From: Candidatus Helarchaeota ASGARD archaeon Hel_GB_B
GTDB lineage: Archaea > Asgardarchaeota > Lokiarchaeia > Helarchaeales > HEL-GB-B
DNA: 20,962 nt
NCBI GenBank assembly: GCA_005191425.1
Contig: SUPR01000065.1
Coordinates: 1-20,962 of the forward strand
Direction: 5' to 3'
Shown here: piece after piece, positions 9,624 through 20,961 of the stretch
Layout of the letters: every line of letters begins with the position of its first letter
Position numbering within the stretch: position 1 is the first letter of the stretch
Notes under the pieces: model-generated
Told to the model about the DNA's origin: nothing
Database searches by the model: none
The model's input: only the letters and a program-made list of their open reading frames with translations
Position numbers and translations under genes: made by a program

Positions 9624-10781
9624 TTGAGCGAAATATTAATAAAAGGAGCCGCCATATATTATAATATGCAACAATTACAATATTTACCGGAAATAAATTA
9701 CATTTATTATCCAGATGAATACGGCGGCTCCTATTATATATTATTTTCTTCCTATAATTTTTATTTTTCGGTCCTTGAAAATTTCAACAAGAAGAGTGGT
9801 CTAGGGCGCCCGAAATTTGATAGAAACATTTTATTTAGATGCCTTATGCTAAAAACACTAATGATGCCAAATAATTATAGGTCCTTAATAGCAAAGTTAA
9901 GGCTTAATAAGGATTTAGCTAAAATAATAGGACTTGACCCCAATAAGATCCCAAGTGCCTCCATTTTAAAGAAATTTTTCCATGAACTTGATATTGATAC
10001 TTTATACGAAATAAATCTACAATTAATTAATGAGCTACGTTTATATAATATCCTGAATTTTGATAAAATTGCGGTAGATTCAGTCCCAATTGAATCATAT
10101 TTCAAGCCCCCGACTAAAAGAGGGCAGAGCAGTACTGATATTGATGCTACATGGGGTTTCTCAAAATGTAAAGGTGGGTGGTATTTTGGGTACAAAGCCC
10201 ATATTATTACTGATATTGACAGCAAACTAGGTATATCTTGTATTGTCACGAAGGCGAACGAATCAGACCAAAAAATAACGGACTCCTTGATTAATCTACT
10301 AAAAAAATTGGAGATACATCCGAAACAGTTATTAGCAGACGCAGGCTATGACAGTGAAGACAATCATTTCAAGTTGAGAGAGGAGCTTAATTGTATTGGG
10401 ATAATAAAGCCAAACCCTAGAGGTAAGAAGAGAGTAAAATACACCATAAAAACTATAAATAAAGCAAAGAAATTACTGAAACAGACTACTTTAGATAAAT
10501 ATATTCCAATAAAAAAAAGGAAAAAAGAGTATCGACAATGTTGTTGTGTTCTGCAGAGACATAAGATATTTAAAAAGATTTATAAAAAGAGGATATACGT
10601 TGAACAAGATAATTATATCATTAAGAATGTATTAGGACTAGAAAAAAAGAAAATAATAGGACTTGTCAATATGTATAAAGAAGTTTTATTAAGGTGTATT
10701 GTATCATTAGCAATTGCAATAGTATCGAGCCAGTTAGGTATACCAGAAGTAATGAGGTCTCCTAGATTTTTCCAGAATTAA
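9624..10781 (+). CDS. DDE transposase (DUF772-like N-terminus + DDE_Tnp_1-like core)
   Basis: GRPKFD..LFR.L...SL..L...IPS.S N-domain; AVDS (D152), ATWG...GWYFGYKAH..TD, ANESD, LADAGYD (D239), and Y-KK-R-IYV-E-QDNYII-K (the Y-2-R-3-E-6-K motif, E327). The true start may be the ATG at 9666 (MQQLQY). Confidence 0.93.
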   Translation: MSEILIKGAAIYYNMQQLQYLPEINYIYYPDEYGGSYYILFSSYNFYFSVLENFNKKSGLGRPKFDRNILFRCLMLKTLMMPNNYRSLIAKLRLNKDLAKIIGLDPNKIPSASILKKFFHELDIDTLYEINLQLINELRLYNILNFDKIAVDSVPIESYFKPPTKRGQSSTDIDATWGFSKCKGGWYFGYKAHIITDIDSKLGISCIVTKANESDQKITDSLINLLKKLEIHPKQLLADAGYDSEDNHFKLREELNCIGIIKPNPRGKKRVKYTIKTINKAKKLLKQTTLDKYIPIKKRKKEYRQCCCVLQRHKIFKKIYKKRIYVEQDNYIIKNVLGLEKKKIIGLVNMYKEVLLRCIVSLAIAIVSSQLGIPEVMRSPRFFQN

Positions 10782-15090: not shown

Positions 15091-18000
15091 TTATTCAAAA
15101 TCAAGTTTATTGGGGTCATCTATTGTAACTGGATGACTATATCCGCATTTAGGACAGATATATTCAGTTTCTTTCATTGTTGCACCACAATTTGGACAAT
15201 AATAAGCTATACTTGAACGCTGTTTTTTACTTCTTTTAATAATAAATCGATATACAAGATATGTAGAAATTCCACAAATGCCAATTAGTCCAAATATCAT
15301 AATAACTGTAAAATAAATTGGAGAACCAATTGAAACTTGAGCATAAGTATAACTATTATCATCAAATTCGCCATCTGAATCTAATAATAAAATGATGATA
15401 ATACAAGATTTTGGAAAAGAATAGGTCTCGTCCAAAATTTGTGATATTCCATTATATGGGAGAGAGATTTTCGCTTTAAAAGAACTTCCGTCAAATGGAA
15501 TTTCTGTACTCCATAATGGCTCATATAGATAAGCATAAAAGCCAATTGTAAAATAACTAAAAATTATTACATATGCATGCATATCTGAGAGATTACTTTC
15601 AGAGTCAGACCCAGAAATTTCTATATTAAAGCCTACGCCATAGAAAATAGGAGTTGGAAGAGAGTTTTGTAATATATTAAAAGAAATTCCATTCAATTTT
15701 GAACTAACTTTACTGATATGAGGGTATTTATCATTAATATAAAAATGAAGAATTTTGTGTAAACAAGCAGAATTACCCTCAGAATCAATTATTTCAAAGA
15801 AAACATCATAGCTCCCAGCGGGAAAAGAATTGTCTGGAAAAATTATTAGAGAATAATTAGTTTCAATGGCATTTTTTGTAGTCAGATTGTTCATCTTTAA
15901 ATTAAGATATTTTATATTATTTCTATAAGTATCTATTGAATTAATATACACATTAACACTAGTAGTATTAAGGTTTAAATTGGTATTTTGAATTGTTAAA
16001 TTAATAACTATTCTATCAACATCTCGATAAACATCATTATTAATTTCATCACTATAATCTTGTGAAGTTTCCCACCTTGAAGTTTTCAGACTATAATGAA
16101 CTATTTTTGGTATTGATTGAGTAGTATTAAAATAAGATATACCTACACCATTACCAAATGATAAATTTTCAACTGTAACATTTAATTTGAAATACCCAAT
16201 TAGATTTGTGCTGAAATTTAAGGTATATGCGCCATTACCAATATTATTAATATTTGTTAAATTAGATGTAAAAATAGTATCCCAATGGGTAGAGTTATAG
16301 TAGAAGATATGACAACTTAAGTTCTTACCAGGTATTAAATTATTAACCACCTTATTTGAGTTTGGGTCAGATATATAGAAACTAATTTGTGTGGAATTAT
16401 TTGTATTCAATTCTAATATAGACTTATTTACAATTGATTCAACTCGTAATTCTCTTGAATTCGACTTCTGAGACCCATTTAATAACCATTTAATTGTTTG
16501 TAATGCCAATTTTTGGTTATTTTTTTTACTGATCAAATCATCATAAAAAAGTCGTTCCTCACCAAAACAAAGAATTTTATGATAATTTGATTGATTATAA
16601 GCTGCTATAACAGGTTTTGTAGTGTATTGCGCAATAGTATAAGCCTTGGAACTGTTCACTTCCAAGCCGACTCCAGTTAACCAAGTAAAATTTGAGATAC
16701 CTTTTGTAATTGGGTGAGTTATAATATTTTTGATATACATATATTTGTAATATTTTAGCATTCCCATGTCATAAGACATCTCAATATTATTTTTTGTATA
16801 ATTTATTCCCACATTTAAATTGATTAATAAATTATTTAATGATTCGATTGCTGTGGAAGGATAATAATTACCTAAAATCAATATATTTCCACCATTATCC
16901 CAAAATTTTTTAATTGCAAATATTTCATTGTCTGTGAGTGGATTTTCAATATCTGGTAAAATTAGCAGGTCATATTGACTTAAGGAAGGATAATTAATAA
17001 GTGAACTTTTAAAATCAAGGTCAATTTGGTTATTTAATAATAATTTTGTGAAATTATAATAATTTTCTAATGCGGTATCGCCATAATCAGAATTATGATA
17101 ACAATCAAAATATATTCGACCTTTAGGGATTCTGATATTAAAACTTAAATTTACTTGATCTACAATTTCATTTGTATCATTATTTTTAATTAATATTAAA
17201 CCATTATATACACCGGGTTGAATTACAATCGGAAAATTAAAATCGATTTTTATATCGGTAAATTGTGAACTTGTGGACATTATATATAAGAAACTATTAT
17301 TTTTTGAAATTTCATTTGATGTATAAGGAATCAAAGATACAAATTCTGAGATATTTCCAATACATCTTACTGAATAATTGGCCTTTATACTTGAGAGAAA
17401 TATAATATTATCAGAGTAATGATCGCCTGGAAACATTGAATAATCAAATGGTGGTATAGGCAGATTTTTTGGAAGTACTGTAGTTATATTAAAATTTGGA
17501 GCAGAATGAAGTAATATTTGATAACTTTTATTTAGATTGATCCTACCAGCCCCTTCAATATTAGGAGTATAACCCAAATTATCAGCTCCTTTCATCAATG
17601 CGATTCGAACAGTATATGGGTTCAAACTTGGAAAAGCTTCTAGCAAAAGAGCTACAGCACCTGCCACCATAGGGCAGGACATACTTGTTCCACTCAACAC
17701 CATATAATTGTTTGAATTACGTCCATATACGTATTCACCCTGTAATTGCATAATTTTACCCAGTAAAGAGTCTTTTGCAGCTGCTGAAAGGATATTTTTA
17801 CCGGGAGCGACTACATCTGGGTCTACATATCCTTCTGAAGTAGGGCCTCGACTGCTAAAATCAGTAATTCTGTCTTCTTTATCCGAAGCGCCAACTGTTA
17901 TTATCAAACGAGCAGATGCAGGAGAACCAACGGTAGAATAAAATGGACCACTATTCCCAGATGAAGCTACAATAACTATCCCTTTTTTAGTTGCATTATC

Positions 18001-18864
18001 AACAGCTCTACAAATAGGGTGATCAGGGTCGGATGTACTAAATCCCAAACTCATACTTATAATTGAAGCTTTATTATTAATACTCCATTCTATTGCAGCA
18101 AGAATGCCAGAGAGATATCCAACACCTTGTTTATCAAGACATTTAGCATTTAATAATTTTGCATCAGGTGCAATTCCAGTTATGTTATAACTTGGAGGAG
18201 ATGAAACACCTGTTCCCGTGGCAATCCCCGCACAATGAGTACCATGACCATCATAATCATTTGCGTCCTCAACTTCATCAGCATCAAATCCATAAGCAGT
18301 TGTAACAAAGGATACTTGCGCAAGCATCTTTCCTTTAAGATCACTATGAGAGAAATCAATTCCAGTATCGAGTATGGATATATTTACACCTTTCCCAGTA
18401 TAAGGAATTGCTCTAGCTTTAATAGTATCAGCACATTGTTCTAATTGAAAAATATCTTGATATGAAATTGATTTTTCTACTTTAGACAAGTTGATTGAAA
18501 ATTTCTCATTTTTATAAATACCTACAACGAAGCTTAATTTTGCAATTTTAAGTATATCTTGTTTATTTACATTACAGAAAATTGCAGAAATATAATTAAA
18601 TAAAATAATAGGAGTTTTTTGACCACAAATTTGTATAATATCCTCCTTAGCTTTATTTAAATCGGTATTTTTCTTAAAATTAATAATTATAGGGTTATTA
18701 GAATTGAATAATGAAAATTTATTAAATTTAATTTTTTGATTAATTAAGATGTTTTCATCTATAGATGATCGTAATTGATGATAATTAATAAATTGGATTA
18801 AAAAACTAATACATATCAGAAAACAAATTAAACTTGCAAAAAATATCGATTTTTTATTGCGCAT
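15091..18864 (-). CDS. Type-I membrane-anchored S8 subtilase with a GATase-like (GIFT/S1P-type) domain, Ig-like region, TM helix and cytosolic zinc ribbon
   Basis: N-terminal signal/anchor; I9-like propeptide; intact triad D166 (ILDTG), H207 (GHGTHCAG), S394 (GTSMSCP) and oxyanion N304 (SSGNSG); later domain IYFDCYHN..SQYDLLILPD..EI..DNGGNILILG..HPIT; many N-x-S/T sequons; TM IYFTVIMIFGLIGICGISTYLV followed by KRSKKQR; YCPNCG-x9-CPKCG. Confidence 0.9.
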   Translation of the reverse strand: MRNKKSIFFASLICFLICISFLIQFINYHQLRSSIDENILINQKIKFNKFSLFNSNNPIIINFKKNTDLNKAKEDIIQICGQKTPIILFNYISAIFCNVNKQDILKIAKLSFVVGIYKNEKFSINLSKVEKSISYQDIFQLEQCADTIKARAIPYTGKGVNISILDTGIDFSHSDLKGKMLAQVSFVTTAYGFDADEVEDANDYDGHGTHCAGIATGTGVSSPPSYNITGIAPDAKLLNAKCLDKQGVGYLSGILAAIEWSINNKASIISMSLGFSTSDPDHPICRAVDNATKKGIVIVASSGNSGPFYSTVGSPASARLIITVGASDKEDRITDFSSRGPTSEGYVDPDVVAPGKNILSAAAKDSLLGKIMQLQGEYVYGRNSNNYMVLSGTSMSCPMVAGAVALLLEAFPSLNPYTVRIALMKGADNLGYTPNIEGAGRINLNKSYQILLHSAPNFNITTVLPKNLPIPPFDYSMFPGDHYSDNIIFLSSIKANYSVRCIGNISEFVSLIPYTSNEISKNNSFLYIMSTSSQFTDIKIDFNFPIVIQPGVYNGLILIKNNDTNEIVDQVNLSFNIRIPKGRIYFDCYHNSDYGDTALENYYNFTKLLLNNQIDLDFKSSLINYPSLSQYDLLILPDIENPLTDNEIFAIKKFWDNGGNILILGNYYPSTAIESLNNLLINLNVGINYTKNNIEMSYDMGMLKYYKYMYIKNIITHPITKGISNFTWLTGVGLEVNSSKAYTIAQYTTKPVIAAYNQSNYHKILCFGEERLFYDDLISKKNNQKLALQTIKWLLNGSQKSNSRELRVESIVNKSILELNTNNSTQISFYISDPNSNKVVNNLIPGKNLSCHIFYYNSTHWDTIFTSNLTNINNIGNGAYTLNFSTNLIGYFKLNVTVENLSFGNGVGISYFNTTQSIPKIVHYSLKTSRWETSQDYSDEINNDVYRDVDRIVINLTIQNTNLNLNTTSVNVYINSIDTYRNNIKYLNLKMNNLTTKNAIETNYSLIIFPDNSFPAGSYDVFFEIIDSEGNSACLHKILHFYINDKYPHISKVSSKLNGISFNILQNSLPTPIFYGVGFNIEISGSDSESNLSDMHAYVIIFSYFTIGFYAYLYEPLWSTEIPFDGSSFKAKISLPYNGISQILDETYSFPKSCIIIILLLDSDGEFDDNSYTYAQVSIGSPIYFTVIMIFGLIGICGISTYLVYRFIIKRSKKQRSSIAYYCPNCGATMKETEYICPKCGYSHPVTIDDPNKLDFE

Positions 18865-18972: not shown

Positions 18973-20961
18973 TCACTTCAAAGCAGTTAAAATTTTTGGG
19001 TTAATTCCTGGTAAGGTCGCAAGATATTCTTTACGTTCTTGCTTTAACTCTTTGATTAACGTTTCAATTTGTTTCTCAGTATAATATTTTTTGGGGTCAT
19101 ATTTAGACATGTCCACACCATTAACATATTCTGGGATAAGAGTCCCAAAATAATGTTCAGGTACCCATTTAATACTATTTCTTGCAATTCCTCTGATTAT
19201 ATTAGCCATTTCGTCTATGGGTATTCGTTCTACAGGTCTTTTTATTATATTCCGACCATGTTCATCTTTTTCTCTAATTTCTCCGATTCCACCAGTATTA
19301 ATTTGATAGCATTGTACCTTATTAGGGGGCAAATTCCGGATCATATTATAAAATATATTTACTTCTTCTGCTTTATCTCCAACAATGAATGGATTAGTAC
19401 CAACTATTCTAATAGACTCTCCGGCTCTTCTAGGGTCGCTCCCGCTCGTATGAATGGATTCTCCGAGTGCAAAAGCTAAAGCAGCTTGTTCAAGAGTTAA
19501 TTTTGAAGCTATCGGTATAATAGTATTACGTCGTGTAATTAATAGAATAATTAATCCGTCCAATTCGGATACTGGAGGCAAGTTAACTGTATCATGAATT
19601 GCATCACCAAAATCAGTTCTTTGCATTATTCCACGTCCATTTCCCGTCAATGTTTCATCAAAGAAATAAACATCTCCCTTATAGTCCACCATTATGTTCT
19701 CGAATATAGTGGTCGGTTTTGTAACAACGCTATAGATTAATTTTTGAATTTCTGGAGATATACCTTCAGTTTTTAAGAAAAATCCGCGCTCAGTTCCAAT
19801 AATAGAGCCATCTTTTCTAATTGCAACAAAATCATCTTGTACAATTTCAATCCCTTCTCCAGGTAGGTCTAAGTTGTGGGTATGACATGAATGTGTTGTT
19901 TTTCCAGTTGCAGTAAGGCCAAAAATTAAAGTGCTGTATTTTTTAATTTTACCAGTTTTTGAGTCTCGCGCTTTAATTAATTTAGCTCCAGCGTGTAAAC
20001 CGAGCATCCCTTGTTGTTTCGCGCACCACATAGCCATTCTTAGAAAGCCTTTTTTAACTTCACCGTAATAATCACTACCTAAAATAAATGTAAGACCAAT
20101 TTCTGGAAAGACCAATATTTGACGGTCCATTTCTTGCCATTCAGGAATGTCAACTATATATAAATCAGGTCCATTTGCTTTAACGTCTTCAGGTCTAAAC
20201 AAGGATTTATCAAACATATAGGATAAATGTACCATTTCTTTTCTGTGAATTGAACAGAAAAAAGTACATTTAGGCGTAAAAAATTCATTATTACCCATTA
20301 TTCTATCAGTAACTACAAAGGCTCCTTTTTCTAAATACTTTAATACATCGTTAATTGTTTTAGGTAGTCTTAAAAATAACTCCTTTTGTACTTTAGTTAA
20401 ATTTTTTGCCCTGACCTTTTCGCTTCCAATAACAATAGTTAAATTAGCACTTCTATTCTTAACAGTAGATACAAAATTATAACTACCCCATTTAGTTTTT
20501 GTGCCATAAACTTTTGCCATACGTTCAAGTTCTTCTGGAGATGGATTTGAAACATTATTTTGGTTTCTTAAATTTTTAACCCTTGATAGAATTTCATCAT
20601 AATTAATTTCGTCTATAATATTTTTTATGTCCATATCTATCGGAGATTCTTTAATATCTTCTCTGAAAAATGCAAGATATTCCTTTGTTTCAATCAATAA
20701 TTGAATCCAACGTTGTATTTCGAATATTGAATGGGCGGTATTTACTTTATAAGTAGCTGCATATTGACAAATTGTACTAAAGAATTTTGTCCTCATATTA
20801 ATTCTTTCTTCACTTAAGACGAGAGTATGAGGATTGAAAAAAGGAGATTTTGCTGATTTTAACATCTCTAATGCTTTTTCTGAATCAATCCTTGCACCAA
20901 TGGTTTCATCATCTGGGTCATTATATAATAATAAAATTACTTTTATTCGAGTTGTATCAAT
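18973..20961 (-). CDS. Divergent ATP-type phosphoenolpyruvate carboxykinase-like protein with an extra N-terminal domain; 5' end beyond the window
   Basis: PEPCK motifs YYGEVKKG, GLHAG, P-loop GLTATGKTT, QDD, FENI, TGNGRG, NPF, INTG. The frame stays open for 32 codons upstream of the track's ATG at 20865, up to the window edge (IDTTRIKVILLLYNDPDDETIGARIDSEKALE-M), so the gene is partial. Confidence 0.8.
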   Translation of the reverse strand: MDTTRIKVILLLYNDPDDETIGARIDSEKALEMLKSAKSPFFNPHTLVLSEERINMRTKFFSTICQYAATYKVNTAHSIFEIQRWIQLLIETKEYLAFFREDIKESPIDMDIKNIIDEINYDEILSRVKNLRNQNNVSNPSPEELERMAKVYGTKTKWGSYNFVSTVKNRSANLTIVIGSEKVRAKNLTKVQKELFLRLPKTINDVLKYLEKGAFVVTDRIMGNNEFFTPKCTFFCSIHRKEMVHLSYMFDKSLFRPEDVKANGPDLYIVDIPEWQEMDRQILVFPEIGLTFILGSDYYGEVKKGFLRMAMWCAKQQGMLGLHAGAKLIKARDSKTGKIKKYSTLIFGLTATGKTTHSCHTHNLDLPGEGIEIVQDDFVAIRKDGSIIGTERGFFLKTEGISPEIQKLIYSVVTKPTTIFENIMVDYKGDVYFFDETLTGNGRGIMQRTDFGDAIHDTVNLPPVSELDGLIILLITRRNTIIPIASKLTLEQAALAFALGESIHTSGSDPRRAGESIRIVGTNPFIVGDKAEEVNIFYNMIRNLPPNKVQCYQINTGGIGEIREKDEHGRNIIKRPVERIPIDEMANIIRGIARNSIKWVPEHYFGTLIPEYVNGVDMSKYDPKKYYTEKQIETLIKELKQERKEYLATLPGINPKILTALK

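Follow-up and report, generated by a model that had tools for sequence, protein, structure and literature searches.

A membrane-anchored subtilase of Asgard archaea with a predicted ectodomain resembling that of eukaryotic site-1 protease

Site-1 protease (S1P, also called SKI-1 or MBTPS1) has a central role as a processing enzyme in the eukaryotic secretory pathway, where it acts on SREBP, ATF6, CREB3-type factors, GNPTAB, and viral glycoproteins. The enzyme is activated by SPRING, cleaves membrane-bound precursors after R-x-hydrophobic-x, and loses its prodomain at basic sites of the R-x-x-(L/K) type. Its structure consists of prodomains, a subtilase (S8) catalytic domain, a P-like beta-sandwich (residues 479 to 616), a GIFT subdomain (residues 617 to 998) that braces the loops of the oxyanion hole, a transmembrane helix, and a short tail (PMC11231238). 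According to a subtilase survey, the S1P group "had likely a eukaryotic origin" (PMC6713707). Full-text literature searches found no paper linking site-1 protease or MBTPS1 to Asgard archaea, and the main text of two structure-based Asgard surveys (PMC12962969; bioRxiv 10.64898/2026.10.28.762692) does not mention S1P, subtilisin, or GIFT. Here, we describe an open reading frame (ORF) for a membrane-anchored S8 subtilase with an S1P-like ectodomain on contig SUPR01000065.1 of the Helarchaeota archaeon Hel_GB_B (assembly GCA_005191425.1). The whole stretch analyzed, referred to as the window, is 20,962 nucleotides long, and the ORF occupies positions 15091 to 18864 of its minus strand, encoding 1257 amino acids plus a stop codon in a frame without internal stops. 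The product is probably a catalytically competent Asgard type I subtilase whose predicted ectodomain shares an ancestor composed of S8, beta-sandwich, and GIFT domains with S1P, which hints that S1P may have archaeal roots.

Predicted ectodomain structure

The structure of residues 130 to 830 was modeled with AlphaFold2 from an alignment of 64 Asgard sequences only, without templates, and the model had a predicted local distance difference test (pLDDT) score of 92 and a predicted template modeling (pTM) score of 0.88. A Foldseek search of the PDB with this model placed S1P at the top ranks (9csd_A, E = 6e-44; 8uw8_A, E = 2e-41), with a template modeling (TM) score of 0.65 over approximately 760 columns, while the next matches, Vpr and Tk-SP, covered only the S8 and beta-sandwich domains with TM scores of approximately 0.4. 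Superposition on 8uw8_A with VIA-align gave a Z score of 41.1 and a root mean square deviation of 4.4 Å over 578 aligned residues (6 to 669 of the model and 190 to 874 of S1P), and the other chains among the matches listed aligned over 357 residues or fewer. Among these matches, S1P is the only solved structure on which the S8, beta-sandwich, and GIFT domains of the predicted model superpose together, consistent with the proposal of an earlier note on this stretch that similarity to S1P extends beyond the catalytic core. Judged by the Foldseek E value and the VIA-align Z score, the resemblance of the model to S1P is far beyond chance, at an amino acid identity of just 20 to 25%. The three domains are predicted with high confidence to form one compact ectodomain arranged as in S1P.

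Databases of predicted structures gave similar rankings. The top five Swiss-Prot models were four mammalian MBTPS1 proteins and Arabidopsis SBT6.1, with residues 14 to 676 of the query aligned to residues 192 to 882 of S1P. The ESM Atlas returned an MBTPS1 cluster by shape (TM score of 0.72, 596 aligned residues) and MBTPS1 clusters scoring 0.94, 0.90, and 0.90 by sequence features. Among AlphaFold clusters, two unnamed entries came first, followed by many that spanned the three domains, two of which were named site-1 protease; some rows with lower TM scores appeared to be bacterial, one of them being named for a type IX secretion system (T9SS) sorting domain. As a separate observation, a Methanobacteriota S8 cluster of the ESM Atlas (839 amino acids) aligned with 522 residues of the model at a TM score of 0.64 and may be another S8 protein with a GIFT-like third domain that Pfam misses.

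The S8 catalytic domain comprises residues 136 to 450 (window positions 17515 to 18459, on the minus strand like all parts of this protein) and matches Pfam PF00082 at residues 157 to 434 (E = 8e-62). As in S8 subtilases generally, the Asp-His-Ser triad occurs in order together with an oxyanion Asn, namely D166 (codon at 18367 to 18369), H207 (18244 to 18246), N304 (17953 to 17955), and S394 (17683 to 17685). Because this tetrad is unvarying in 64 of 64 family members, the enzyme is predicted to be active. The beta-sandwich that follows (residues 455 to 582; 17119 to 17502), delimited by the strands of the AlphaFold2 model and the superposition on S1P, is the positional counterpart of the P-like subdomain of S1P. 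It is succeeded by a GIFT or GATase1-like alpha/beta domain (residues 583 to 800; 16465 to 17118), which was identified with Pfam and the family profile and lies almost exactly where the earlier note had placed a GATase-like domain (16475 to 17130). Pfam matches to ABC_transp_aux (E = 2.5e-9) and IFT52_GIFT (E = 3e-8) span residues 598 to 726 approximately, and MBTPS1_4th, described as the "fourth GATase-like domain," matches weakly (E = 0.0076). IFT52_GIFT is matched by 63 of the 64 family members and ABC_transp_aux by 59, which places the domain in the GIFT superfamily. The same superfamily includes IFT52, OST48/Wbp1, and GldG (Pfam IFT52_GIFT, OST48_N, ABC_transp_aux, and DUF4350), none of which carries a protease, whereas the archaeal GIFT domain is fused downstream of an S8 domain, as it is in S1P.

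The comparison extends to the whole protein. Like S1P (8UW8, 9CSD; SBT6.1), the archaeal protein is predicted to be a type I protein with a signal sequence, a putative prodomain, S8, beta-sandwich, and GIFT domains, a transmembrane helix, and a basic tail, and the three ectodomain parts of the model superpose on S1P as a single body. Unlike S1P, it carries three extra Ig-like domains as a stalk and a zinc ribbon on the cytosolic side, and the large insertions of the S1P GIFT domain are missing from it. All the parts that the earlier note had listed, from the signal or anchor sequence, propeptide, S8 triad, and beta-sandwich through the GATase-like domain and further beta domains to the transmembrane helix, basic stretch, and tail, are present.

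Sequence relationships and the case for common descent

Only the family profile, and not the single sequence, reaches S1P by sequence comparison. When the profile of the beta-sandwich and GIFT region was searched against the PDB, residues 600 to 852 of S1P were matched (E = 2.5e-10), with an alignment that begins in the last strand of the sandwich and crosses the sandwich/GIFT junction. A phmmer search of the PDB with residues 455 to 1000 of the single sequence matched IFT52 and not S1P. Of the motif pairs quoted in the earlier note, the archaeal halves are all in the translation. For the GIFT motifs, the S1P halves (RVLWDQYHNL, SQYG..VDSE..EEI..DNG, NELL, and LEV) are borne out by the identity line when the profile is aligned with 8UW8. 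The MBTPS1-specific domains that the note had suggested as a check gave a divided result. MBTPS1_4th (PF23090) is matched by 23 of the 64 family members, with member P0055 (34.8 bits) above the curated cutoff of 27 and the protein of the window (16 bits) under it; in a search of the genome, the protease ORF was the sole place touched by this model, with 15 bits, which is insignificant alone. The second domain, MBTPS1_3rd (PF23094), had no match in the protein, in the 64-member family, or in the genome. Two further searches stayed closer to the family: a profile search with the alignment from the beta-sandwich to the C terminus returned only Asgard proteins, and a region search with P0055, the most S1P-like member, returned only P0055 itself.

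Several observations weigh against common descent with S1P. The absence of a detectable MBTPS1_3rd signature is one difference from S1P, and that of an S1P-type basic autoprocessing motif is another: around the inferred end of the propeptide, the exact position of which is uncertain, the family alignment shows no conserved basic P4 or R-x-x-L type motif. The same profile that matched S1P matches IFT52 more strongly (E = 2e-19). In sequence, the S8 domain lies much nearer to Tk-SP, an archaeal subtilisin that is secreted and degradative, than to S1P, and bacterial subtilisins score as well as S1P. Tk-SP is its closest characterized sequence relative (E = 5e-60, 43% identity, VIA-align Z score of 49), and a profile of the whole ectodomain scored 338 bits with Tk-SP, approximately 240 to 250 bits with subtilisins, and 236 bits with S1P. 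A Heimdallarchaeial member searched against the PDB showed no extra affinity for S1P, which was outside its top 60 matches. The FDxxH motif that opens the GIFT domain is generic and also starts many stand-alone GIFT/DUF4350 proteins. In Heimdall and Odin genomes, the surroundings of the gene differ, and no partner gene is conserved beside the protease. With neither domain specially S1P-like in sequence, the case for common descent rests on the shared arrangement of the three domains and the topology. Independently of this case, the better match of the GIFT domain to the intraflagellar transport protein IFT52 than to S1P may bear on the origin of eukaryotic GIFT domains.

Tk-SP of Thermococcus kodakarensis (3AFG, 9UES) shares with the archaeal protein a propeptide, an S8 core, and a beta domain after the catalytic domain. 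Unlike the archaeal protein, it is secreted and lacks the GIFT domain, the stalk, the transmembrane anchor, and the zinc ribbon. The combination of S8 and beta-sandwich is old and common, occurring in Tk-SP, Vpr, and KP-43, and GIFT domains are mobile, being found alone, as repeats, and in OST48-like proteins. These properties would suit an independent fusion, in which a GIFT domain was added to a protease with S8 and beta-sandwich domains once in archaea and once in eukaryotes and the likeness to S1P is convergent. So would the finding that, for the S8 domain as well as for the GIFT domain, S1P is not the nearest relative in sequence. This explanation is considered unlikely, as the domain order, the placement of the domains (TM scores of 0.65 to 0.72 over approximately 580 residues), and the membrane topology are the same as in S1P, and the profile alignment crosses the junction between beta-sandwich and GIFT domain.

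The earlier note had named a wide occurrence of S8 and GIFT domains together in bacteria and non-Asgard archaea, with S1P branching elsewhere, as a finding that would speak against it. Proteins with both domains do occur outside Asgard archaea, in a layout different from the S1P-like one. One S8-GIFT type from the family search mapped to twelve genomes of Bathyarchaeia, a non-Asgard lineage. Like the Asgard proteins, these are large and exported, and GIFT-type domains follow the S8 domain within a single chain. They are uncharacterized proteins (loci L012 to L016) of 1700 to 2200 amino acids, in which a single S8 domain is combined with two or three GIFT copies in tandem, and, unlike the Asgard proteins, they do not match the beta-sandwich profile. 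Their S8 domains score approximately 160 bits on the family model, compared with 283 bits for the S8-only paralogues of the Hel_GB_B genome. Because the Bathyarchaeial S8 domain is more distant than these paralogues, S8-GIFT fusion may have arisen more than once, a further point against reading the shared architecture as evidence of descent. The Bathyarchaeial fusion is probably separate from the Asgard one, which keeps convergence in play and lends some support to the independent fusion of the archaeal and eukaryotic proteins. Homology of the three-domain architecture with that of S1P is nevertheless likely, and the Asgard family and eukaryotic S1P would then go back to a single ancestor with S8, beta-sandwich, and GIFT domains and not to separate fusions.

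Membrane anchoring, distribution, and genomic surroundings

The hydrophobic N terminus, the C-terminal transmembrane helix, and the basic KRSKKQR stretch predict, with high confidence, a type I protein whose protease domain lies outside the cell. The signal peptide or signal anchor comprises residues 1 to 27 (18784 to 18864), in which MRNKK is followed by 20 hydrophobic residues (hydrophobic stretch at residues 5 to 27, hydropathy window at residues 5 to 23). A propeptide-like region (residues 28 to 135; 18460 to 18783) follows, the boundary of which was set by alignment to mature Tk-SP: residue 136 of the protein (model residue 7) pairs with Tk-SP residue 114, the first of that chain. The phmmer alignment to ProN-Tk-SP begins at residue 59, and the region does not match Pfam I9. 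Behind the GIFT domain, a model of residues 825 to 1257 (AlphaFold2, pLDDT score of 88) contains three Ig/FN3-like beta-sandwich domains, a long helix, and the ribbon. The three sandwiches form a putative stalk (residues 825 to 1180; 15325 to 16392), and a fold search with this C-terminal model gave nothing beyond generic matches to tandem FN3/Ig domains. The transmembrane helix, located by hydropathy and coinciding with the long helix of the model, spans approximately residues 1180 to 1202 (15259 to 15327). In the cytosolic tail (residues 1203 to 1257; 15094 to 15258), the KRSKKQR stop-transfer sequence is followed by a CxxC-x10-CxxC zinc ribbon (15139 to 15201), which matches Pfam Zn_Ribbon_1 at residues 1222 to 1242 (E = 3e-5) and scored 29.8 bits, above the cutoff, in the genome search. 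The protein can be described as a subtilase of the S1P type that is set apart by its Ig-like stalk and its zinc-ribbon tail.

The earlier note had regarded the zinc ribbon as an added regulatory handle. Because the Zn_Ribbon_1 module is matched 48 times in the genome, in most cases at the end of a small membrane protein, it is better described as a generic module than as a specific regulatory addition. The same tail module occurs elsewhere in the window: an ORF at positions 354 to 1136 of the plus strand encodes a 260-amino-acid multipass membrane protein that has an acidic linker and, at its C terminus, a CxxC...CxxC ribbon (Zn_Ribbon_1 at 1062 to 1124).

The family was delimited by an exhaustive search with residues 455 to 830 as the query, which yielded 272 representatives; the best of them were mostly 1200 to 1400 amino acids long and matched at the same position. 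In the protein set analyzed, S8 and GIFT domains were found together in 113 proteins, 100 of which also matched the beta-sandwich profile, and proteins with all three domains form approximately 100 clusters at 50% identity. The C-terminal transmembrane helix is kept in 79 full-length representatives, 50 of which also have the zinc ribbon. A short form of 800 to 950 amino acids has a basic tail at its end but neither the Ig-like stalk nor the ribbon. Members with a source name belong to Hel-, Loki-, Prometh-, and Odinarchaeota, Heimdallarchaeota B3, Hodarchaeales, and "Asgardarchaeia," and an Atlas cluster is labeled Thorarchaeota. With the beta-sandwich and GIFT profile, matches at E ≤ 1e-10 were found in 393 of 400 genomes of the phylum, although the weaker ones may be other GIFT proteins; the best places among the matches listed lie in open frames of approximately 800 to 1360 amino acids. 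A large Asgard family, mostly single copy and distributed across lineages, is predicted from these searches with high confidence.

Two kinds of matches stand apart from this distribution. A close relative with 53% identity in the middle region (P0014) is labeled as belonging to the bacterium "Candidatus Deferrimicrobium sp." and is probably an Asgard contig binned into a bacterial metagenome-assembled genome. Two Hodarchaeota proteins of 460 amino acids (P0181 and P0182) match Pfam OST48_N and IFT52_GIFT and resemble the OST48/Wbp1-type subunit of oligosaccharyltransferase, providing a second Asgard GIFT-domain protein with a eukaryotic counterpart.

The S8 proteins of the Hel_GB_B genome comprise one copy of the S8-sandwich-GIFT gene and two S8-only paralogues of approximately 450 amino acids. 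The window has a G+C content of approximately 27% and carries archaeal genes for Elp3, a Sm-like (LSM) protein, ThiC, phosphoenolpyruvate (PEP) carboxykinase, and an Lrp-type regulator. The order PEP carboxykinase, protease, radical-SAM protein, LSM, and ThiC is kept on a 444-kb Helarchaeota contig, and this synteny and the top-scoring relatives fit a Helarchaeota-like lineage. Contamination or a recent transfer from a eukaryote, the remaining explanation for the likeness to S1P, has no observation in its favor, was rejected, and has a negligible probability: the archaeal gene context and the synteny with the 444-kb contig rule it out, as do the 20 to 25% identity to S1P and the depth and diversity of the Asgard family. 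The PEP carboxykinase ORF (18973 to 20961, minus strand) is open up to the edge of the window, and its ATG-started version has 630 amino acids; the gene is probably longer because the Helarchaeota orthologue (contig L009, 4085 to 6787) has 900. A 385-amino-acid ORF (9624 to 10781, plus strand), which by eye alone looks like a DDE transposase of the IS4/IS5-like type, breaks a stretch otherwise syntenic with contig L009. Among public sequencing runs, no RNA run was listed with the gene, and the DNA runs with the gene are hydrothermal-vent and marine-sediment metagenomes.

Possible functions and significance

The structural and topological predictions reach as far as a membrane-tethered extracellular endoprotease with a GIFT domain seated on its catalytic domain, which is the limit of our commitment on function. 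Such an enzyme would be made as a zymogen and remove its own propeptide, as Tk-SP and S1P do. The three Ig-like domains are predicted to hold the protease head above the membrane, with the transmembrane helix and the short basic zinc-ribbon tail on the cytoplasmic side. After export, the tethered endoprotease may act at the cell surface on proteins that are secreted or membrane-bound, and the GIFT domain may brace the catalytic domain and restrict entry to the active site, as it is described to do in S1P.

Peptides and amino acids sustain the Asgard archaea in culture, and a nutritional role is favored by this lifestyle together with the kinship to Tk-SP. The protein could then be a Tk-SP-like degradative surface protease that feeds a peptide-fermenting archaeon, the likeness to S1P reflecting shared or convergent composition and not function. 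Such a role is possible, though not preferred. It would fit Tk-SP being the closest characterized enzyme over the S8 core, subtilisins scoring as high as S1P, the occurrence of S8 proteins with several GIFT domains in Bathyarchaeia, and a long stalk that would keep the head off the membrane. Scavenging proteases are usually patchy and multicopy, whereas this family is near universal with one copy in the genome; its transmembrane anchor, and in many representatives its zinc ribbon, has been kept; and the predicted seat of the GIFT domain on the catalytic domain is that found in S1P, an enzyme of narrow specificity. A processing or housekeeping role is favored by the near-universal, single-copy distribution and the retention of the anchor.

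The most specific form of such a role, which the earlier note had put forward, is that of a functional S1P orthologue that makes the first extracytoplasmic cut in tethered regulators before their release by an M50 protease. This would amount to a two-step system of regulated proteolysis older than eukaryotes, in which the zinc ribbon serves as a control point. An architecture and topology like those of S1P and the near-universal, mostly single-copy occurrence, which better suits housekeeping than scavenging, are consistent with this role, and four M50 genes are present in the genome. M50 genes were also found in 14 of 14 control genomes, however, and none of the four adjoins or is otherwise linked to the protease gene. 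The inferred propeptide junction shows no conserved R-x-x-L type motif, SPRING1 (PF10218) had no match in the 94% complete genome, and the proposed control point is a common module. The site-1 cuts known from bacteria are made by proteases such as DegS, PrsW, SpoIVB, and CtpB, whose folds and families are unrelated to subtilases and which offer a functional analogy at most, that of an extracytoplasmic cut before M50. A functional S1P orthologue is accordingly rated as rather improbable. Very doubtful, too, is the combined proposal that S1P descended vertically from the Asgard family and that the cuts of the ancestral enzyme already licensed M50 site-2 cleavage of tethered regulators; if it were true, the S1P/S2P relay of SREBP and ATF6 signaling would predate eukaryotes.

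The significance of the family would be lower if it arose by independent fusion or is a plain scavenging protease. As a catalytically competent Asgard subtilase sharing a three-domain ancestor with S1P, which is the reading preferred here, an Asgard-wide S1P-type ectodomain would provide a further candidate for a eukaryotic signature protein, one linked to the processing of membrane proteins, and would give a tractable prokaryotic model of the control exerted by a GIFT domain over a subtilase.

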